This document shows, in pieces, positions 26,009-37,768 of a stretch of DNA of 64,000 bases. A model generated the notes under the pieces. The model was not told the origin of the DNA and did no database searches. It saw nothing but the letters and a program-made list of their open reading frames with translations. The stretch is from the sequence record LC739536.1, one strand, 5' to 3'. The stretch is from Escherichia phage phiWec187. The translations under genes were made by a program, and so were the position numbers. The first letter of the stretch is position 1. Each line of letters starts with the position of its first letter.

Positions 26009-26031
26009 AAAAGGGGCGAAAGCCCCTTTAT
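26009..26031 (+). terminator. terminator hairpin after tailspike gene
   Basis: stem aaggggc / gcccctt with gaaa loop; A/T-rich flank. Confidence 0.5.
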
Positions 26032-28010: not shown

Positions 28011-28036
28011 AAAGCCCCTTCTGGGGCTTATTATTT
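28011..28036 (+). terminator. terminator hairpin after collagen-like fibre gene
   Basis: stem aagcccc / ggggctt then tattattt. Confidence 0.5.
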
Positions 28037-28047
28037 AAGGAGATTAA

Positions 28048-30867
28048 ATGTATCCTATTCCTTTATTTATGTCAACAACATCAGCTTCAGTAGTAACAGC
28101 TACATCTATAACTACTTCCTCTATTGGTATTGCAATAGTTGGTGGTAAAAAACAACTGACATACACAGTTACACCGGAAGATGGTGCATTATTTGATATA
28201 GCTTTTTCATCTTCAGATAATACCAAAATGGTTATAGATAATAGTGGTATGATGGAGTTTGTTGCCGAAGGTGGTTTTGATGCAATAATGACAGCTAAAA
28301 ATAATTTAGGTGCTGTCTTAACTGATCAATCTGGTGGTTATGCTTCAGAATTAAGTGTGTACACTGAAAGTCTATCGGCTATGGATGTAGGCACTACTCA
28401 ACAGTTGGTTGCTACAATCAGTCCAGAAGGTGCTAAAGACCTTCCAGATATGGTAATTACATACACCACAACAGATCCAGAAGTAGCTACTGTAAGCCCT
28501 ACAGGGTTAATAACTGCTCTTAAAGATGGCGGTTGCCGTATAGGTTGTACTGCAACGTATCAAGGAACAGTTGTGGCCTCTGATAGGTCTTATTTAGGTG
28601 TTAATGCTATTCCTGTTATTTCTAATGTAACAGCCGTGGCAAACAGTTATGGAGACGTTCGTGTTGCTTGGGATGTAACTGATCCGCTAGACGGTGATAC
28701 TTATACTGTAGAAGTATTAGATTTAAGTAATAATAGTGTTCAGTGGACTACAACAACCACGAATACTTACGCTTACTTTGATATCTCTGACTCTATTCCT
28801 CTTTATGGGTTTGCTCCAACATACCTTAAAATTAGCGTTAAGAGCACCAAAGCAGCAGCCGTTATCTTTAATAACTCAATAGCTACAGATGATTCGTTCA
28901 TTAAAGAAGTTATTGTCTTTGCTGGACAAGATAACGTAAATGCACACTTTACAGAACTATCTGGTGCAAATAAAGCAGCAATGAGTAGCACAACAGCCCG
29001 TAATGCATATGCCACGCAACGTGGTTTAGCAAATGCTGAAGTTCTTCCGTTAAATACAGCTTCTGGATCATCAGCAGCAGATAAATATGCAGATGATAAA
29101 GCCGGAACAGGAACACCAGACAACTACTGGTATGATCTGGATAACACAGCAGATGGGCCATGCTTAACTAACTTTATCACTAAAGTCACACCTTATGCAA
29201 GTAAGGTTAAAGCCATTATTTGGGGACAAGGTGAAAATGATGCTGTATCAGCATCTTCGACTGTTGCAGGTAGGTACAGTAACACTACACGTTACCATGA
29301 TGCTACGATAGCCATCTTTGATAAGATGCGTACAATAGTTCCTGCTTCTCAAGCAAAAATTGTTTGGCAGATCCTAGGACGTTCTTATTTATATGGTGTA
29401 GAAGTTAATGGTGTGGATTGGCAGAAGTACAGAAATGTACAAAGAACCATCTCTACAGCACGTGATGATGTTATCATTGGTTCTTGGGTAGATGGTGCTG
29501 AACGTTACAGTGGTTATGTTTATGAAGAAGGTATTGATGGTCGTATCCATTATATTTCTTCTGTATACCAAACAGCAGCTACAAAACTTGCTAAATCAGC
29601 AGCAGACGGTACAGACTTAACATCAACGTCACCTGTTTGGGTTGATATGGCTGTTCCAACTGGAGCAACAGCTACTTCCCAATCTAATCAAGATACAATT
29701 TTAGCATGGGATGCTCAAGGCTATAGTAAACACTACTTCCGTAATATTAACGTCTTAACCGCATCTGTATTAACTGAACAAACGCTTAATACGAACAGTT
29801 ATACGTTTACCTATGCAGATCAAGTAGCACAATATGGCTTTGCAGCAGGAACTACTATATTTGATGTTGCATATTATGACGAAGCAAATGATGTGTTATC
29901 TCCTTTAGTACGTTTTAATGTTAACGTTACAGCAGGAACCGTAGAAGATAAACCTGTAGTGATGGATTATGATTTAACACAAGAAACTCTTCCATCAGAT
30001 GTTAAGGTTAATGGTGGGAACTCTTTTGCTCGTACTTCTGGAGATACACTTGTAGCCACTAACACCTTGGTTGCTCCGTTGGAGTATATTGGTACTACCC
30101 CTGTAGGTAGACGTGTAACAGCTAACACAGCTACACAAATTTTTGTCAACAACGCCTTAACAAGTGCAAGCCCGTGGGTAAAGACCAACTTAACTGTTGC
30201 AGCTTCATCTGATAACTCTCCGGTTGGAACTACTGCTAATGTATTCAAATTAACTCCGACTACAACCTCTGGTAGTCATATCTTAACTGCAACATATACT
30301 AACGCGTACAACATATCTGCCGGACGTAACTGGTCTGCCTCTGTTTTCTTGAAAGCGAACGGGATTACTAAGGCCAAACTAAGATTAAAAGCAGGAACTG
30401 AAGTTAATGAGGGTACTTTTGATTTAGCAGCAGGTACATTCACAGGAAGTGAAGCTAATATTATATCTATGGGCAACGGTTGGTATCGTGCTATTCTGCA
30501 TAAAACAGGGATAGCCAAACAGTCCTCCATAAGTTTTGAAATAATTGCCTTGGATGCAACTGGTGCGGAGATTTTCGCTGGAGATGGTACTAGTAACCTT
30601 GCAGTTTGGTTGCCACAGCTTGAAGGTGCTTCTACAGGAGAAACATCAAAAGCTGGATCGCCTTATGTCTGCACATATCCTGGAAATTTAGGAGGAGTAT
30701 CCTTCACTATACCAAGGAACGGACATACTGGTGTGGATGTTTACTATTCCAACGGAGACGTTGTTCGTGACGTATTCTCTGGTACGGCATCTACTTGGAC
30801 AATAAACTACTCCAGCTTGTACGATTGGGGATCAGTCTTTATTACAGGTTTGAAATATTACGACTAA
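28048..30867 (+). CDS. tail fibre with Ig-like N-terminal region and putative SGNH/sialate-O-acetylesterase-like domain
   Basis: 939 aa; FAGQDNVNAH and IWGQGENDA resemble the GQSNM and WxQGE blocks of SASA-type esterases; last gene of the + strand module. Confidence 0.45.
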   Translation: MYPIPLFMSTTSASVVTATSITTSSIGIAIVGGKKQLTYTVTPEDGALFDIAFSSSDNTKMVIDNSGMMEFVAEGGFDAIMTAKNNLGAVLTDQSGGYASELSVYTESLSAMDVGTTQQLVATISPEGAKDLPDMVITYTTTDPEVATVSPTGLITALKDGGCRIGCTATYQGTVVASDRSYLGVNAIPVISNVTAVANSYGDVRVAWDVTDPLDGDTYTVEVLDLSNNSVQWTTTTTNTYAYFDISDSIPLYGFAPTYLKISVKSTKAAAVIFNNSIATDDSFIKEVIVFAGQDNVNAHFTELSGANKAAMSSTTARNAYATQRGLANAEVLPLNTASGSSAADKYADDKAGTGTPDNYWYDLDNTADGPCLTNFITKVTPYASKVKAIIWGQGENDAVSASSTVAGRYSNTTRYHDATIAIFDKMRTIVPASQAKIVWQILGRSYLYGVEVNGVDWQKYRNVQRTISTARDDVIIGSWVDGAERYSGYVYEEGIDGRIHYISSVYQTAATKLAKSAADGTDLTSTSPVWVDMAVPTGATATSQSNQDTILAWDAQGYSKHYFRNINVLTASVLTEQTLNTNSYTFTYADQVAQYGFAAGTTIFDVAYYDEANDVLSPLVRFNVNVTAGTVEDKPVVMDYDLTQETLPSDVKVNGGNSFARTSGDTLVATNTLVAPLEYIGTTPVGRRVTANTATQIFVNNALTSASPWVKTNLTVAASSDNSPVGTTANVFKLTPTTTSGSHILTATYTNAYNISAGRNWSASVFLKANGITKAKLRLKAGTEVNEGTFDLAAGTFTGSEANIISMGNGWYRAILHKTGIAKQSSISFEIIALDATGAEIFAGDGTSNLAVWLPQLEGASTGETSKAGSPYVCTYPGNLGGVSFTIPRNGHTGVDVYYSNGDVVRDVFSGTASTWTINYSSLYDWGSVFITGLKYYD

Positions 30868-30899
30868 TAAAAAAGGAGCCATTAGGCTCCTTTTCTTTT
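30868..30899. terminator. bidirectional rho-independent terminator between convergent modules
   Basis: aaaaaa, stem ggagcc / ggctcc with atta loop, ttttctttt; A-run and T-run on both sides. Confidence 0.6.
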
Positions 30900-30902
30900 A
30901 TC

Positions 30903-31334
30903 TTAATCAGTGAAAATTACGCTCACATCTTCTTTAGAGAAGAGTTTATGATCTTCACCTTTTGTCTCAAGAGTTTCATACAGGTTAAGAAGTTCTGAAA
31001 CATCTTTCTCTACCAGTTTCTTCAATGTTGCAATTTTCTGTTTGCGATTCTTAATACGTTCAGCTACAACCTTACGTTGGTATCCGGCAGTACGATAACC
31101 TGAGAAAGTTACACCAGTAAGACTTGCAGTTACAGGATCGTAGTGACGTTCAATCTGAAATTTATTAAAAGGTACAGCGTCATCACGAATAATCTTACCG
31201 CCATTACTTACTTGACGAAGACCAGTAACTTGCTCAAGTCGTGCCATAGAAATCTTTGGAGACAGACCAGAATCCAGGTTCATACCGTTGTTAATCAGTG
31301 CTTTCAGGGTGATTTTGCTGTTCAGTGTACTCAT
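30903..31334 (-). CDS. hypothetical protein co-transcribed with the DNA methyltransferase
   Basis: 143 aa; start overlaps the 3' end of the methyltransferase gene by 44 nt; no family I can recognise. Confidence 0.35.
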   Translation of the reverse strand: MSTLNSKITLKALINNGMNLDSGLSPKISMARLEQVTGLRQVSNGGKIIRDDAVPFNKFQIERHYDPVTASLTGVTFSGYRTAGYQRKVVAERIKNRKQKIATLKKLVEKDVSELLNLYETLETKGEDHKLFSKEDVSVIFTD

Positions 31335-32022
31335 TTAGTCGTTCCTCCGCTTGCTTAAAAATATTTACATCGGCTTCACAGCCTAAGTATTCTCTACCTG
31401 TTAAAAGTGCCGCAACTTGTGTTGTTGCACTTCCAGAGAAGAAGTCTAAGACTACATCTCCTTCGTTGGTGTGTATATTAATAAGGTCACAAAACAAAGT
31501 CAAGTGTTTTTGTGTTGGATGAAAACGATCTGCTCCTTGATAGATAGGATACTCGAACACACCCTTATGGTAGGAAGCATTGAAGGTTGGCTTCGAACCT
31601 TTAACACAAACAATAGCCATCTCTTTAGCGTTACTAAGGTAGTTAACACCACTGTTGATGGGTACAGGGTTTGTTTTAATCCATTCAATAGTACGGAACA
31701 TACGAAAACCAAGCGGTTCAAGGATTTCACGTAGCTCCTGGATCTTCCAGATATCATACCAAACTATACAAGTACCACCTTTTCTAAGCACCCTGTAGGC
31801 TTCTTTGAATACTTCTTTAAAGTAAGGAATATCTACAACATCCCAATCACCAAAGTTGTAAGATACACGGAATCTATCCGTATCTTTTCCAGTCGGCTCT
31901 CCAGATTGAAAATTTGTGTCACGAGAAATAGCATATGGTGGGTCAGTAAGAATCAAATCTACACTATTGCTTTCGAGGGTTTGCAGGTAGTTTAACGCGG
32001 TGTTGTTTACAAATTCGCTCAT
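31291..32022 (-). CDS. DNA methyltransferase, beta class (N6-adenine or N4-cytosine)
   Basis: N-terminal DPPY catalytic motif (LILTDPPYAI) and C-terminal AdoMet motif (VLDFFSGSATT); motif order IV then I defines beta class. Confidence 0.7.
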   Translation of the reverse strand: MSEFVNNTALNYLQTLESNSVDLILTDPPYAISRDTNFQSGEPTGKDTDRFRVSYNFGDWDVVDIPYFKEVFKEAYRVLRKGGTCIVWYDIWKIQELREILEPLGFRMFRTIEWIKTNPVPINSGVNYLSNAKEMAIVCVKGSKPTFNASYHKGVFEYPIYQGADRFHPTQKHLTLFCDLINIHTNEGDVVLDFFSGSATTQVAALLTGREYLGCEADVNIFKQAEERLNEYTEQQNHPESTD

Positions 32023-32040
32023 TATATCTCCTTCAAAGAA

Positions 32041-32060
32041 AAGGAGCCGTTAGGCTCCTT
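32041..32060 (-). terminator. rho-independent terminator after SSB gene
   Basis: stem aaggagcc / ggctcctt with gtta loop; minus-strand T tract ttttctttg; same stem as the 30868 hairpin. Confidence 0.5.
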
Positions 32061-32082
32061 ATATTTACACAATATTTAACTA

Positions 32083-33030
32083 TTAGAAACAGTGCAGGAA
32101 GTTTCGACCATACTGCAAACCAATAGGAGCAAATGGGATATCATCATCGAAATCTTGAACAACAGGTTCTGGCTCTTTCGGTGCTGGCTCTTTCTTCTCT
32201 ACTTTTTTAGTTTCTTTCTTAACTTCTTGTACCGGGGTAGACATTCCACGGATAGCAGCAGCTACTTTATCAGACAAAGCAAGAACTTCACGAGCAGCTT
32301 CAATAATCTCTTCTGCCGTTACAGTCTTACCTGTATGATCACGACAAGCGTTAAGAATTGCGTGTCCAACTGAAGCACCAAGATCATAGTCAGTCACATC
32401 AACGCCACGATCTTTAGCAATTTCTGCTTTCAGAGTAACAGTTGCAGATTGTACCACACCAGCCAAGTCGAAAGCATCACCTTTCACACCAGCACGTAGA
32501 AGCTCCAGAGCGCCGTTCACAGCGTGTCCTGTTTCAATCCCCACGGTATCACGTTTTTTGTAGTTAGGCTTGTTACCGTCATTATTAGATGGCTTATTTC
32601 CACCTTTTGAAGAGGATTGCGCTTGCTGAACACCTTCTGTTGAAAGAATAGTGATTTTACCTTTAGAGGAATTGTAGTATGTTTTGCCATTCCATTCAGA
32701 AGGTTTAACATCCATAGTTAGTTCTACACCTTTTTCGATAGTAACCCACTTGTCACCATCTTTAACTTGCAGGTTTTCATGTTCTGGATGCAGTTTAACT
32801 TCACCTAGGCTAACCCAAACACCTTTATCATCAGCACTAGCACCTTTCTCTTTAATAAGCAGAGATGCTTTGTGAGTTGATTCAATTTTCTTATCTGGCT
32901 GACCTGCAACCTTAATATAAGAGACTTTCATTTCATCAAACTTATCCAGTTTGACATATTCAACGATACCTTCAGCCCAGAATGCTTCTTTTTTAGTACG
33001 ACGGTCGATTTCAGAATTAATTACTGGCAT
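32083..33030 (-). CDS. ssb: single-stranded DNA-binding protein
   Basis: 315 aa; Gly/Asn/Lys-rich linker and acidic DFDDDIPF motif, the hallmark tail of bacterial-type SSB, here followed by 15 more residues. Confidence 0.6.
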   Translation of the reverse strand: MPVINSEIDRRTKKEAFWAEGIVEYVKLDKFDEMKVSYIKVAGQPDKKIESTHKASLLIKEKGASADDKGVWVSLGEVKLHPEHENLQVKDGDKWVTIEKGVELTMDVKPSEWNGKTYYNSSKGKITILSTEGVQQAQSSSKGGNKPSNNDGNKPNYKKRDTVGIETGHAVNGALELLRAGVKGDAFDLAGVVQSATVTLKAEIAKDRGVDVTDYDLGASVGHAILNACRDHTGKTVTAEEIIEAAREVLALSDKVAAAIRGMSTPVQEVKKETKKVEKKEPAPKEPEPVVQDFDDDIPFAPIGLQYGRNFLHCF

Positions 33031-33445: not shown

Positions 33446-33488
33446 TCAAGTCCTCATAATAACACATAATTATAATGTTTGTCAACAC

Positions 33489-34219: not shown

Positions 34220-37200
34220 TCAATGACAACTAGCCCATGAGTTACCAACATCGTAACCAGCAGTGAGAGGTACATTAAGATTGTAATACTCACCAGCTTT
34301 ATTAACAGCGATAGATGCTAATTCTCCAGCACGACTGTAGGCTGTAAACCAACCACCTTTCGGAGATTCATGTACGTTAGCCCAAATCTTGCCAGTACGT
34401 TTCTCTTCCTCTTCTTTCCAGGTATTAACTTTATCCAAACATTCTTTATCAATTTTCTTTTGTTCTTCTGGATCATCAACTTGAGTCCAACCTAAAGATT
34501 CTTTAGAGAACCATTTAAAATGCACCAGATCACGAGTTACTTCAAGCTGTGCTTCATCGTGATATGCAATCATTTGTTGAACGAATGACTTATTTTTCCA
34601 GTCATCAACAAAAAAGTCAACAGCTAATCCTTCTTCTTCGATAAGATCGTCGTAGATAACCATTGCTCTTTTTGCACAAATAACACCACCACTCTGGAAC
34701 AGAGAGTTAAGTATTGCGTGTGCAGATCGTGTAGGTACTTTTCTACCATCAATACCGAGAATGTATTTCTTACCTGTTTTAACCCAAAAATCATGCAGAC
34801 GTTCTTTAAGAAGCGCAAGAGGTTTTGCAGCTTCCCAGAAAGCATCGTATACAAGCTGTCCTGTATACATATCACTACCTATAGTTTTTGCTACTTTTGC
34901 AGCTTGAGCGCCGTACGTGCAGTTACCTGTCAACGTGATAAAACCATTCTGACGCATAACAAAAGATTCATTCTTGGTTGAGATACAGAATACATCTGTT
35001 ACTCGTGAAAAAGCTCTTGTCAACCTCTGTCCTGAAATAGTTTGTCCGTTATTGATTGCCAACGTTAACATGCCATCTTTTTGAACAGAACCATACGCAA
35101 TATTACCTGTCATATTGATAGCCAAAGAAACAGCGTCGCTAATCTTACCTTTCTTTTGACGGATAACAAGACTGCCGTTTGGACGCTTATGACCATCTGC
35201 CATCCAGAATGCCTCTAAGAATGCTTCCAACACAGCTTGACCTTGATTAGCAATTAATGTAGACCAGTCCACTTCGTGCTTATTTTGACCCACTTCAACG
35301 CCACATTTAGTCAAAAATTCCCTAAACTGACTCTTATTAGGACGTAATGAATGCATCGTTCCAGATACATACTCGTCAAATGTGAAGATATCTCCCACAG
35401 CCTCACGTGCTTCTTCTAAGAATTTTTTCTCATCTTGATCTACCGTGACTGTAATACCCATTACTTTATTTCTGGCTTTGCCAGACCACTTATAGTAGCC
35501 ATCCGAAAGAAGCCAGCCTAAGAAACGACCTTCTTCCACTGTTAGAGTAGACACCACACCAGATCGCCCTGCTGCAATTATGTTTGACTCCGAGTTTAAA
35601 TCCTCTGTAGATCTACGCTCCACTTGCATATACTTAACATTGTTACCATCTGATCGCATAGTTTTTCTCTGTGCGTTAATCCACATATGATCGTTAGTAA
35701 CTTCTACTTTGAACCACTTGTTACCGAGAGAGACAACTTCTGCATCGTTATAGTCCCACAGCTTAAGAATAGGGGTATATTCGTAAAGAGCGGTGTGAGT
35801 ATTATAAGATAAAACTTCATCCCCTACAAAAAGATCTTTACGTTTCTTCCAACCCGTTCTTGTTAACACTTCCGTATTATCTACAGGTACACAACCGTAT
35901 TTAACGCTCTTAGCAGGACCACGTTCAAACTTACGTCCAATAATATCAGTAATATGTTTTGCCATCATAGTATGCACATCGTTTGGTTTTTCTAACAGAA
36001 GTGCATTACAGTAAGCATGATCAGGATTATCATATCTCCACGTATAATGCGACTCAATCTTCGCCTCTAATGAATCAAAGTCATAACCAATCTGGAAGTA
36101 TTTAGGAACCTCTACACCAAATAAGTTACGCATTTCATATCCGTACAGAGATGTTACACGTGGGATATTTGCTACTAACCTATGTTTCATACGAGATGTA
36201 GCTGCATCACACGTTGCAGCAGGAGTTGGTATACGACCATCAGCCCTTACTGCTGCCAGATAACCTTTATCGTAATCCTCTTCTTCTTCCCAATCAGCAC
36301 CACCCCCTAGAATAGAGTTCCTACGGTGTTTATACGTAAGATACTGCACAACCTGCGTAGCATAAGGAAACTTTTCACCTAGTGCTTCCAAGTTAGGACA
36401 AATATCTTTCTCTTGCCCTTTTGTAAAGGAAGGGTTAGTAAGCACTTTAACACCACGACCTTTAGCTTTAGCAATACGATCTCTTAGTTTCCATTCCAAA
36501 GTTTCTGGTGTGCACTCCAGATGATCACATCTGTCCTGGCAGAAATTAGATGCTAATGTTTGATCAACATAGTCACGAATGGCTTTCTCCATTTGTGCTT
36601 CATCTTTCTTAATCTTAGTGCCAGATTTAAGAGTGATATCTTTATCTTTATATTCAGATGGACTCCAACCTAAACCAACTAACCAATTTTTAATATGTGT
36701 TGTGTCGTCTAAAGTAGCAGGTACTGTAGGATCACAAATAGGTTCTTCTGCTGGAATAGGTAGTTTAAACTCTTTACCTAATGCAAATAACCACCAACCA
36801 TCTTCTTTTTGTACAAGTTCACCAGAATGTTTCTCTGCAAACTTTATCATGTTACTTGAAGGTTCACCATTCTTTTTAAACTGTAGTTTAGGTGGAATGA
36901 ATGATTTCAAATAACCTTTAGTAGCAGGTTTAGGAGGTAGCACAGGTTCTGCCTCTAAACGACATGCTTCCATTCGAGCATCCAGATCACGAATATTATC
37001 TTCTGCTTGTTTCATGTTGAAAGCAAAGCCACGGTGCTCTTGACGTGTAATAATATCAGCTACACGTTGTTCTAAGTTAAATGGTTCAGACCACTTATTA
37101 TAATCACCCCACTCTTCCATCAAATAACGGAACACTGCGGTGTTAGCTTTGTTATCGTAAATACAGTAATACAGCATATCTGCTGCAAATGTTCTAAATC

Positions 37201-37768
37201 TTTCAGTTTCAGGGATGTTTTTTCTGAAATCAATTTTAACATCCCCTCCAGCTTTCTTAGATAACTCTGCCAGACTATGACCACCGAAGCGATCAGGGTT
37301 TAGTGTCTTACTTAAGATCATAGTATCACAAATTTCAATGTTACTATTACCCCAAGTATTGTACTTAATACTGTAGTTGAGTTTAAAAAATAATTTAATT
37401 GCCAGTAAGTCGAAGTTAATGATGTTGTGTCCAACTACTTTGGTAATTTTATAGTTTGAATTACCTTTAAATTTACCTGTTCCGTTTACAAAATCAGGAA
37501 AATCTTTAAGAGGGAAATGGGTATATTCTAAATGCTCATATTCCTCCAGTCGGTATTCATACTTTCCGTCAGTCTCAACATACGGACGACCATCGAAAAG
37601 ATATTTATCACCATCATGGAAAGCAATAATCTCTCCAGTATCATGACTTTCGCACACAATACAGTGCATTGCAAAACTATCTTTTAAACGATATGGACTT
37701 GCCAAGTAATCTACACTTTCGTCATTAAGCAAGTTGTTACTTTCAATGTCGAAAGTAAAAGCTCCCAT
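34220..37768 (-). CDS. family A (T7-like) DNA polymerase with 3'-5' exonuclease domain, interrupted by an intein
   Basis: Exo I FDIESNN; motif A DFDSLEAKI; motif B RGPAKSVKYG split by the intein and resuming CTYGAQAAK; motif C AYHDEAQLEV. Confidence 0.85.
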   Translation of the reverse strand: MGAFTFDIESNNLLNDESVDYLASPYRLKDSFAMHCIVCESHDTGEIIAFHDGDKYLFDGRPYVETDGKYEYRLEEYEHLEYTHFPLKDFPDFVNGTGKFKGNSNYKITKVVGHNIINFDLLAIKLFFKLNYSIKYNTWGNSNIEICDTMILSKTLNPDRFGGHSLAELSKKAGGDVKIDFRKNIPETERFRTFAADMLYYCIYDNKANTAVFRYLMEEWGDYNKWSEPFNLEQRVADIITRQEHRGFAFNMKQAEDNIRDLDARMEACRLEAEPVLPPKPATKGYLKSFIPPKLQFKKNGEPSSNMIKFAEKHSGELVQKEDGWWLFALGKEFKLPIPAEEPICDPTVPATLDDTTHIKNWLVGLGWSPSEYKDKDITLKSGTKIKKDEAQMEKAIRDYVDQTLASNFCQDRCDHLECTPETLEWKLRDRIAKAKGRGVKVLTNPSFTKGQEKDICPNLEALGEKFPYATQVVQYLTYKHRRNSILGGGADWEEEEDYDKGYLAAVRADGRIPTPAATCDAATSRMKHRLVANIPRVTSLYGYEMRNLFGVEVPKYFQIGYDFDSLEAKIESHYTWRYDNPDHAYCNALLLEKPNDVHTMMAKHITDIIGRKFERGPAKSVKYGCVPVDNTEVLTRTGWKKRKDLFVGDEVLSYNTHTALYEYTPILKLWDYNDAEVVSLGNKWFKVEVTNDHMWINAQRKTMRSDGNNVKYMQVERRSTEDLNSESNIIAAGRSGVVSTLTVEEGRFLGWLLSDGYYKWSGKARNKVMGITVTVDQDEKKFLEEAREAVGDIFTFDEYVSGTMHSLRPNKSQFREFLTKCGVEVGQNKHEVDWSTLIANQGQAVLEAFLEAFWMADGHKRPNGSLVIRQKKGKISDAVSLAINMTGNIAYGSVQKDGMLTLAINNGQTISGQRLTRAFSRVTDVFCISTKNESFVMRQNGFITLTGNCTYGAQAAKVAKTIGSDMYTGQLVYDAFWEAAKPLALLKERLHDFWVKTGKKYILGIDGRKVPTRSAHAILNSLFQSGGVICAKRAMVIYDDLIEEEGLAVDFFVDDWKNKSFVQQMIAYHDEAQLEVTRDLVHFKWFSKESLGWTQVDDPEEQKKIDKECLDKVNTWKEEEEKRTGKIWANVHESPKGGWFTAYSRAGELASIAVNKAGEYYNLNVPLTAGYDVGNSWASCH
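34922..35893 (-). mobile_element. intein (324 aa) with LAGLIDADG homing endonuclease, inserted in polymerase motif B
   Basis: starts at Cys626 (CVPVDNTEVL), ends at Asn949 (FITLTGN) followed by Cys+1; LAGLIDADG-like FLGWLLSDGY and LEAFWMADGH; boundary codons checked on the nucleotide sequence. Confidence 0.75.

Follow-up and report, generated by a model that had tools for sequence, protein, structure and literature searches.

The partner of a phage methyltransferase

What is the 143-aa protein encoded beside a DNA methyltransferase (MTase) gene in a phi92-like phage, how did the two genes come to lie between hairpins that share a stem, and what might they do together? We addressed these questions with a 64,000-nucleotide stretch of Escherichia phage phiWec187 (LC739536.1; hereafter the window), a phi92-like E. 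coli phage (Justusliebigvirus). Hairpins with GGAGCC/GGCTCC stems at 30871–30894 (H1) and 32041–32060 (H2) enclose the MTase gene and the 143-aa ORF, which corresponds to phi92 gp154 (PHROG 20244) and is unannotated. The features of the locus are as follows.

30871–30894, no strand: H1, bidirectional intrinsic terminator between the tail gene (28048–30867, plus strand) and gp154, from the terminator scan
30903–31334, minus strand: gp154-family gene, 143 aa, with an N-terminal winged-helix-like domain, a long coiled-coil helix, and no nuclease domain
31291–32022, minus strand: beta-class DNA MTase of the DpnA/M1.HpyAVI type, 243 aa, from PF01555, 5HEK, and PADLOC matches
31344–31348, minus strand: gp154 ribosome-binding site (RBS) GGAGG, within the 3′ end of the MTase gene and 9 nt before the gp154 ATG
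32028–32033, minus strand: MTase RBS AAGGAG, directly past the T tract of H2, from the sequence
32041–32060, minus strand: H2, which follows the SSB-like gene (32083–33030) as an intrinsic terminator or attenuator, from the terminator scan and fold
33456–33485, minus strand: near-consensus sigma-70 promoter TTGACA-18-TATTAT with TG in front, upstream of gp157

Two terminator-type hairpins flank the gene pair

H1 reads AAAAGGAGCC ATTA GGCTCCTTTT, and its RNA folds at −15.5 kcal/mol on the plus strand (z −4.0) and −18.3 kcal/mol on the minus strand (z −5.0). A T run is present on either side, and H1 can therefore terminate transcription in both directions. On the minus strand H2 reads AAGGAGCC TAAC GGCTCCTT followed by TTCTTTG, and it folds at −13.7 kcal/mol in a 45-nt context (z −2.4). 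Both hairpins have the G+C-rich stem, the subsequent T run, and the better-than-shuffled fold of an intrinsic terminator. The terminator scan and the folds thus agree with an earlier sequence-only reading of this DNA, in which terminator-type hairpins bracket both genes at the junction of the structural and replication modules. That reading also called the two hairpins near-identical and the T tract ccttttcttt shared. In this phage the copies do form a 28-nt direct repeat (89% identity, spacing 1168 nt) as well as a 26-nt inverted repeat (85%), but the resemblance is specific to the lineage, as L005 and L007 carry another stem, a GGGGC-type hairpin, at the upstream H2 position. The tract occurs at both sites, but on opposite strands.

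The sequence GGAGCCnnnnGGCTCC has exactly two copies in the 64 kb versus 0.04 expected, and two matches were obtained in 0 of 100 shuffles. Other terminators in the window reuse stems as well, as had been noticed before (GGGGC at 26010 and 37837; GCCCC at 28012 and 51070). Because this sharing is also seen in pairs of other terminators, a common stem alone is weak evidence for common origin. Compensatory pairing changes were read directly from the sequences of orthologous hairpins: GGGAGCC/GGCTCCC becomes GGGAACC/GGTTCCC in ESCO13, one-sided wobble intermediates are found in L005 and L006, and the arms are swapped in KB57. G:C pairs are gained or lost in concert, with loops free to vary.

The MTase belongs to a lineage that is coupled to IceA-like enzymes

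The assignment of the larger ORF to the beta-class MTases was borne out by a PF01555 profile search (1.9e-30; 106.9 bits versus a gathering cut-off of 26.7; profile positions 1–221 of 221) and by the order of its motifs, with DPPY (motif IV, residues 27–30) N-terminal to FSGSATT (AdoMet motif I, residues 195–201). The residues of both motifs are invariant in A6. PADLOC MTase_II was matched at 1.5e-46, and PDB 5HEK at E 1e-28 over residues 19–238, with only moderate identity in the aligned stretch. M1.HpyAVI/DpnA (PDB 5HEK, 5HFJ) is the best solved relative and has the same small beta-class layout, but at this moderate identity its target specificity is not transferable to the phage enzyme. M1.HpyAVI itself targets GAGG, which speaks against CATG as the site of the phage enzyme.

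The MTases that are coupled to gp154 form one clade, recovered in 30 of 30 bootstraps, within a wider set of MTases coupled to IceA-like enzymes, a tree consistent with a single origin. ORFs located directly downstream of MTases that are 47–57% identical to the phage protein match PF05315 at 1e-29 to 9e-39.

gp154 carries an IceA/NlaIII-type N-terminal domain but no nuclease

By using hhalign, we found that the N-terminal domain of gp154 (residues 22–84) matches that of IceA/NlaIII-family (PF05315) enzymes with a probability of 96.6% (E 5.4e-10), and the HMM matches between gp154 and PF05315-type proteins were reciprocal. The AlphaFold model of gp154, built from a 29-sequence alignment, is confidently folded; five close sequences had given a pLDDT of 54. 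Foldseek matched the model to IceA1 with a probability of 0.96, and a Foldseek search of the model against the PDB returned no significant match. The gp154 protein aligns only to residues 25–84 of IceA-like proteins. Their invariant residues (D114-H115, N144, and C151/C154/C182/C185) all reside in the half that gp154 lacks and have no counterpart in it; gp154 contains no cysteine and no conserved histidine, and a coiled coil occupies the place of the HNH/zinc nuclease half. This coiled coil of its own suggests that gp154 forms homo-oligomers.

By sequence comparison, gp154 is derived from the restriction enzyme that partners this MTase lineage in bacteria (PF05315, IceA1/NlaIII family). The earlier suggestion of a small restriction enzyme was on the right track, given the type of the N-terminal domain, but with a coiled coil and no nuclease gp154 is not a working enzyme; the competing suggestion that the ORF is unrelated to the MTase does not survive the same homology. 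Because gp154 is without the whole HNH/zinc half, the module cannot restrict in the classical way, and the pair does not include the adjacent enzyme with an intact catalytic motif that defines a complete type II restriction-modification (R-M) system.

Searches of Pfam, NCBIfam, and PADLOC with gp154 gave nothing, PHROGs returned "unknown function," and a PDB sequence search gave coiled-coil noise only. Pfam had no match for any of 29 family members either, and PF05315 was accordingly not matched at full length. One family member gave a NUMOD4 match (E 0.011) that was below threshold and was dropped. A PD-(D/E)XK or HNH nuclease was likewise rejected, as gp154 has no conserved acidic/lysine or histidine/cysteine pattern.

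The gene is under purifying selection. Relative to phi92 it carries nine synonymous codon changes and one nonsynonymous change (dN/dS 0.03). Among 1.8 billion proteins its family forms 32 clusters when grouped at 50% identity, and it has invariant residues.

The two genes are kept together across phages

The overlap between the two ORFs that was pointed out previously amounts to 44 nt, and the GGAGG before gp154 is the annotated RBS in phi92. An overlap or abutment of 4–44 nt is kept in all loci that carry the pair, and the two genes are neighbors in five or more distinct gene contexts. The MTase gene is immediately upstream in 15 of the 19 metagenomic gp154 loci with upstream room, gp154 is downstream of every MTase at 64% identity or more, and the two co-diverge. 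Every one of the 55 phage records whose SSB is of the phi92 type (identity of 90% or more) has both genes, and the gp154 ORF is undisrupted in each of 55 genomes, with identities of at least 98.6%. Two lineages have gp154 without the MTase; in L017–19 it is found alone and has a sigma-70-like promoter and terminators to itself. Scans of viral contigs with the whole family alignment and with a third gp154 subfamily found nothing.

CATG is avoided in the window and at gp154-only loci

IceA1 is described as a functional NlaIII isoschizomer with the target CATG (PMC2816704). The presence of m6A in CATG blocks cleavage by NlaIII and by SphI (PMC6191088). The window holds 87 CATG versus 218 expected (observed/expected, O/E, 0.40), which makes CATG the most depleted of the 16 palindromic tetramers, and the depletion is uniform across the window. 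Cassette-free relatives have CATG O/E values of 0.65–0.73, and viral loci with the MTase and a full IceA-like enzyme have 0.30. At the gp154-only loci we observed 0 CATG versus 113 expected in 40 kb, and a further 50 kb of phage J2-1 had 0 versus 106 expected. L016 and L021 carry the pair and show little depletion (O/E 0.8), which fits full protection by methylation and adds no support.

The family association and the site avoidance together indicate that the MTase–gp154 pair is probably tied to CATG. Host CATG restriction alone can explain complete CATG avoidance. CCGG is also missing from J2-1.

The cassette is an old accessory module at a variable junction

The cassette site is the convergent junction of the replication and tail gene blocks. 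A comparison of this junction in related phages, which the sequence-only reading had proposed, revealed that the cassette is present in some and absent from others, namely the sister genus Phapecoctavirus, one Klebsiella relative, and two outgroups. The SSB-like gene and the tail gene are direct convergent neighbors, separated by one hairpin, in ESCO13, Klebsiella phi1_175008, KB57, and Salmonella R7. H1 and both of its flanks are orthologous to the single hairpin of ESCO13, the GGAGCC stem of H1 is also found in the outgroup L011, and compensatory variants of it are found in ESCO13, L005, L006, and KB57. Judged from these orthologues, H1 is the pre-existing ancestral junction terminator, present in relatives without the cassette, and not a cassette boundary as had been supposed. 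Of the two hairpins, only H2 is part of the extra segment; L006 and L017–19 have homologous H2-type hairpins that carry a TTTTCTTT tail. The extra segment (30902–32082) is, from this comparison, an old accessory module consisting of H2, the MTase gene, and gp154.

The age of the module is reflected in L005, L006, and L007, where the cassette occupies the same site and its nucleotide identity is 72–74%, equal to that of the flanks. We sought a compositional sign of recent transfer in the cassette and found none, its GC content being that of the flanks. In the tree, the cassette-free Klebsiella phi1 groups with the cassette-bearing L005 and L007 (100% bootstrap), with deeper nodes weak; SSB-only and three-gene trees did not decide whether the cassette was gained once and then lost or was gained several times. 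The cargo at the junction varies, being nothing, an HNH gene, gp154 alone, or the MTase gene with gp154. The repeated GGAGCC terminators (∼22 nt of homology) may mediate gain, loss, and swapping of cargo, and no deletion variant from recombination between H1 and H2 was found among 55 close relatives. The hairpins themselves are ordinary; the interest of the locus is that one conserved junction is a recurrent landing site for varied cargo.

The morons of lambdoid phages, reportedly described by Hendrix and colleagues, are similar in being extra segments between conserved genes with a terminator at the end, and our cassette is indeed present or absent between collinear relatives and ends in a terminator. 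However, the cassette of this phage lacks its own promoter, is not carried by a prophage, and has a long vertical inheritance. A promoter directly upstream of the cargo was not called at this locus and is present in L017–19, L016, and L021. The proposal of a moron-type insertion thus holds for the accessory nature of the segment, but not in the classical or recent sense, as the segment is without a promoter and has the composition and divergence of its flanks.

The PeSL cassettes of T4-type phages (PMC2839356, PMC4122927) are alike in having repeated stem-loop terminators around nonessential cargo at a variable site. In contrast, the repeat in the window is a terminator only and occupies a single site and not a hyperplastic region; what is seen that bears on recombination between the repeats is the variety of cargo at one site. 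The PeSL composite, a sigma-70 promoter with a stem-loop on both sides of the cargo, was not found in the window, which has stem-loops only. A PeSL-like composite occurs upstream of gp154 in L017–19, where an upstream stem-loop is followed by the sigma-70-like promoter TTGACG-17-TAATAT, and in L016 and L021 a promoter overlaps a hairpin.

Expression of the cassette

No promoter was called between H2 and the MTase RBS, where the gap from T tract to RBS is only ∼8 nt. A TATAAT located over the MTase start codon was rejected as a promoter because it has no −35 element and its transcript would lack the start codon. Transcripts that start at the strong promoter in front of gp157 and the SSB-like gene would read through H2 into the MTase gene and gp154, and H2 would thereby set a low dose. 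Translation of gp154 is probably coupled to that of the MTase. The 33-nt stretch from hairpin to RBS is 100% identical in L006, whose coding DNA is only 72% identical.

Possible functions of the MTase–gp154 pair

The explanation that we favor for the whole, and to which we give a slightly better than even chance, is an old accessory module expressed by read-through of H2, with an MTase acting on CATG and gp154 as a nuclease-free CATG reader. The MTase would place m6A in CATG, or in a site containing CATG, of phage DNA, and gp154 would be a dimeric reader of the same site when unmethylated. Phage DNA would escape gp154 by methylation or, in gp154-only phages, by having no CATG. Because the phage's own DNA would escape, the target of gp154 would be the DNA of the host or of competitors, which it would occupy or mark, and not the phage genome. 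The IceA-family domain could serve dimerization or MTase binding instead of DNA reading.

The IceA1/NlaIII R-M systems are the natural comparison. The MTase lineage is the same, bacteria and some viral contigs encode the PF05315 enzyme directly after it, with order and orientation as here, the N-terminal domains of gp154 and enzyme are homologous, and CATG is avoided in the phage; the difference is that gp154 has a coiled coil, no HNH/zinc half, and no Pfam match. The phage MTase is a small DpnA-type enzyme, and its likeness to these systems is through its lineage.

We regard as tentative, and on balance doubtful, the reading in which gp154 is a methylation-sensitive CATG reader that phages turn against host or rival DNA lacking methylation, either as a restriction-like weapon or as a takeover factor. 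The protein would bind such DNA or coat it, obstruct it, or bring in a separate nuclease, and the phage would stay safe through methylation of its CATG sites or through deletion of every one of them.

The descent of gp154 from the cognate restriction enzyme would also suit an anti-restriction pair, in which the MTase guards against host CATG-type enzymes and gp154 is a decoy that poisons them via mixed dimers or shields unmethylated phage CATG. Phage orphan MTases are generally read as anti-restriction (PMC12210895), and the CATG depletion shows that CATG restriction was a past selective pressure. Nevertheless, both gp154-only lineages are without CATG in their sampled DNA, where shielding would be pointless and inhibition of a CATG enzyme unneeded, yet gp154 of L017–19 has a promoter and terminators of its own; moreover, the coiled coil suggests homo-oligomers. 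We consider this pair of roles unlikely.

A winged-helix-like fold with a dimerizing helix and a tight coupling to the MTase are what might be expected of a DNA-binding controller that tunes the MTase or the surrounding operon in a role like that of C proteins. However, C proteins are small Xre-type helix-turn-helix proteins encoded upstream of the restriction gene, whereas gp154 has a different fold (no HTH_3 match was found), is encoded downstream of the MTase, and occurs without it in two lineages. A regulator would also leave the CATG pattern unexplained, and we judge it improbable.

Presence or absence between genera and the 28-nt direct repeat on both sides would fit a recent moron bounded by two near-identical hairpins, with an ORF unrelated to the MTase. 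This is very improbable, as H1 is ancestral, the cassette has no promoter and diverges and is composed like the backbone, and gp154 co-diverges with the MTase and is homologous to the cognate enzyme. Finally, although orphan MTases commonly arise through loss of the restriction gene and gp154 is without the catalytic half, a decaying, functionless remnant is scarcely credible for a confidently folded protein with a dN/dS of 0.03, an ORF intact in every genome, a broad family with invariant residues, and its own promoter where it stands alone in L017–19.

Implications

The favored explanation provides an origin and a testable function for an unannotated phage protein family, PHROG 20244. Like other phage orphan MTases, the enzyme comes from a lytic phage in which no active restriction partner accompanies it, and relatives are reported to carry several orphan MTase genes (PMC12210895); the difference here is that it keeps a conserved, translationally coupled derivative of the lost partner. 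An "orphan" phage MTase can thus retain a selected, coupled fragment of its former restriction enzyme. CATG is the predicted methylation target for phi92-like E. coli phages, a widespread group of therapeutic candidates. Were gp154 used as a weapon, the pair would amount to an R-M system rebuilt around binding instead of cutting. The zero CATG in the sampled DNA of gp154-only phages is a clean natural experiment, and it suggests that the gp154 fragment still tells self from non-self DNA.

Gene layout of the locus

By sequence, the phage is assigned to the phi92 group (Justusliebigvirus, Stephanstirmvirinae), and the 7 kb surrounding the locus share 98% identity with several Escherichia phages, ALITA and inny among them. 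The region in question corresponds to phi92 gp153-gp156.

Features of the locus (window positions)
28048-30867, plus strand: tail gene, converging on the minus-strand genes
30871-30894: hairpin H1
30903-31334, minus strand: gp154 gene
31291-32022, minus strand: methyltransferase gene
32041-32060: hairpin H2
32083-33030, minus strand: gene for an SSB-like protein
33456-33485, minus strand: near-consensus sigma-70 promoter (TTGACA-18-TATTAT, TG before it), just upstream of gp157
34220-37768, minus strand: family-A DNA polymerase gene

The methyltransferase and gp154 ORFs overlap by 44 nt, with GGAGG preceding the second start. The SSB-like protein occurs in two C-terminal forms, one ending at an acidic DDDIPF (ESCO13, Klebsiella phi1, and metagenomic relatives L005 and L007) and one extending with APIGLQYGRNFLHCF (window 32083-32130, phi92, Mt1B1_P17, and both outgroups). 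The low-complexity C-terminal part of its gene carries two tandem copies of the 15-nt repeat GGTTCTGGCTCTTTC (32165-32194). The DNA polymerase has 1182 aa versus 854-865 aa in L005, L007, and ESCO13, relative to which it carries an insertion of ~320 aa; close relatives annotate it as an 'intein-containing DNA polymerase precursor'. Four 'Campylobacter phage' records (MG065639, MG065645, MG065656, and MG065689) match this E. coli phage type at 97% identity across the region and are probably mislabelled or contaminated.

The junction hairpins as terminators

The sequence-only reading had described a moron-type insertion bounded by two near-identical terminator hairpins. Both hairpins were recovered by sequence, terminator scan, and folding. 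The sequence GGAGCCnnnnGGCTCC occurs twice in 64 kb, only at H1 and H2 (0.04 expected). As a direct repeat the two copies match over 28 nt (89%), and as an inverted repeat over 26 nt (85%). The window holds about nine hairpins of the form AAG/G+C-rich stem/loop/CTT, and the proposed reuse of similar stems holds: two further stem types are each used twice, and therefore a common stem alone is not strong evidence.

In phages lacking both genes (ESCO13, Klebsiella phi1_175008, and the outgroups Mydovirus KB57 and a Salmonella phage), a single hairpin separates the convergent SSB-like and tail genes; it is of the GGAGCC/GGGAGCC type throughout the group and in the Salmonella outgroup reads AAAAGGAGCC TTTC GGCTCCTTTT. 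When the window was aligned with ESCO13 by BLAST, homology was lost in the SSB C-terminus and regained at 30901. Because homology resumes there, H1 and both its flanks (ATAAAAGAAAAGG... and ...TTTTTTATTAGTCGTAATATTTC) are orthologous to the single ESCO13 hairpin. The extra DNA relative to cassette-free phages is 30902-32082, comprising H2 and the two genes, and H1 is thus not a boundary of the cassette.

Among the orthologous hairpins, pairing survives sequence change: both arms have changed in ESCO13 (GGGAACC/GGTTCCC), L005 and the related locus L006 have wobble intermediates altered on one side, a G:C pair has been gained in concert, and the arms are swapped in KB57. The loops vary freely. 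Such preservation of pairing indicates that selection maintains the structure, here as a terminator. Hairpins of the H2 type that end in a TTTTCTTT tail are also present in L006, where 33 nt including the RBS are identical to the window, and in loci L017-19. At the H2 position, L005 and L007 carry a hairpin of the GGGGC type, so equal stems on both sides are lineage-specific. H1 and H2 are ordinary terminators.

Age and variability of the junction

Sequence comparison indicates that the cassette is accessory and not recent. Both genes are present in each of the 55 records with a phi92-type SSB and absent from Phapecoctavirus records, which agrees with the accessory part of the moron label. The label otherwise fits only loosely, because L005, L006, and L007/8 carry this cassette at the corresponding junction with 72-74% nucleotide identity to the window, a level equal to that of the flanking genes, and because H2 leaves no room for a promoter before the methyltransferase RBS. 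The GC content of the cassette is unremarkable. In a three-gene tree with weak deeper nodes, the cassette-free Klebsiella phage groups with L005 and L007 (100% bootstrap), and the cassette may therefore have been lost at least once.

The cargo at this junction varies: Mt1B1_P17 has an annotated endonuclease gene there, L006 combines the cassette with an HNH gene, and L017-19 have a gp154 homologue without the methyltransferase, in some cases accompanied by an HNH gene. The lone homologue lies between two GGAGCC hairpins with its own promoter (TTGACG-17-TAATAT), resembling the PeSL cassettes of T4-type phages (PMC2839356, PMC4122927). HNH endonuclease genes adjoining the gp154 slot (L006 269-740; L017 3350-3856; L003 5992-6399; L013 3153-3731), assigned by PF13392 in L017 and by annotation in Pseudoalteromonas phage J2-1, may be chance neighbours, agents of cassette mobility, or partners.

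The sigma-70 promoter upstream of gp157 probably drives a gp157-SSB-methyltransferase-gp154 unit. Transcription would pass from gp157 and SSB through H2, a putative attenuator, into the methyltransferase and gp154 genes and end at H1. Close relatives alia, PHB05, SD2, W22, and VEcB have ~495 extra bases within the 7-kb region, an insertion polymorphism near the cassette; an HNH endonuclease gene is annotated there, listed between the methyltransferase and nucleotidyltransferase genes (approximate site ~33446-33488).

Origin of gp154

The methyltransferase matches PF01555 (1.9e-30) and is of the beta class, since DPPY precedes FSGSATT; its best solved relative is the DpnA-type M1.HpyAVI (5HEK, 1e-28). 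No homologues between 99% and 40% identity were found in the phage collection. The methyltransferase-gp154 pair is adjacent, with 4-44 nt of overlap, in at least five unrelated neighbourhoods (next to SSB, ribonucleotide reductase genes, and three sets of unknown genes), and the methyltransferase is present at 15 of the 19 metagenomic gp154 loci with upstream room. The proteins co-diverge (methyltransferase 86/81/78/64% versus gp154 63/66/56/36-44%). Two lineages have gp154 without the methyltransferase, namely L017-19 with relatives L029-31 and L045, and J2-1.

gp154 has no direct family match. A search of 1.8 billion representatives yielded 32 clusters of 100-143 aa proteins, whose alignment has invariant G23, S25, R50, D52, F77, and G79. 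The AlphaFold model built with this alignment (pLDDT 94.9) begins with two helices, followed by a long conserved loop and a beta hairpin, then a helix of 43 residues and a short one at the C-terminus. Relative to phi92, the gene has nine synonymous changes and one non-synonymous change (dN/dS 0.03) and is under purifying selection.

A search starting from the methyltransferase covered viral and bacterial contigs. Methyltransferases at least 64% identical all have gp154 downstream; at 47-57% identity, its place is often taken by an ORF of 200-250 aa (~20 of 46 bacterial loci and five viral ones). These ORFs match PF05315 (ICEA; 1e-29 to 9e-39), and their C-terminal half contains a D-H, an N, and four Cys, all invariant. 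IceA1 is a functional isoschizomer of the CATG-cutting enzyme NlaIII (PMC2816704). The gp154 profile matches the N-terminal 85 residues of the IceA-like ORFs and the IceA-like profile matches gp154 (hhalign 96.6%, E 5.4e-10, gp154 residues 22-84); independently, Foldseek matches the gp154 model with an IceA1 protein of viral origin (probability 0.96). Cysteine is absent from gp154, as is any conserved histidine. The gp154-coupled methyltransferases group in a single clade (30/30 bootstraps) nested among IceA-coupled ones. Together, the profile, hhalign, Foldseek, and tree results show gp154 to be a truncated restriction enzyme that has retained the N-domain and acquired a coiled coil, and the tree is consistent with a single truncation.

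CATG avoidance and a possible role for gp154

CATG is the most under-represented palindromic tetramer in the window (87 observed, 218 expected; observed/expected ratio, O/E, 0.40), evenly across its four quarters. The ratio is 0.65-0.73 in relatives without the cassette, 0.10-0.40 in L005, L007, L020, and L043, ~0.8 in L016 and L021, and 0.30 in viral loci with a methyltransferase and a full IceA-like enzyme. Six loci with gp154 and without the methyltransferase have no CATG in 40 kb (113 expected), and a further 50 kb of J2-1 contain neither CATG (106 expected) nor a methyltransferase homologue.

Palindrome avoidance differs by lineage: GTAC has an O/E of 0.24 in ESCO13 (50 kb) versus 0.78 in the CATG-depleted window, and J2-1 (bases 1-50000) lacks CCGG (34.6 expected) as well as CATG. 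Given this second absence, pressure from host restriction is by itself also a sufficient explanation for the CATG avoidance.

The methyltransferase would modify CATG, and gp154 may still read this site when unmethylated. A purely anti-restriction role is less favoured, since a phage without CATG has no sites to shield and no need to block a CATG enzyme, but still retains gp154 with its own promoter. We therefore favour the hypothesis that gp154 acts on foreign DNA, and consider this partner ORF, rather than the ordinary hairpins, the interesting part of the locus.
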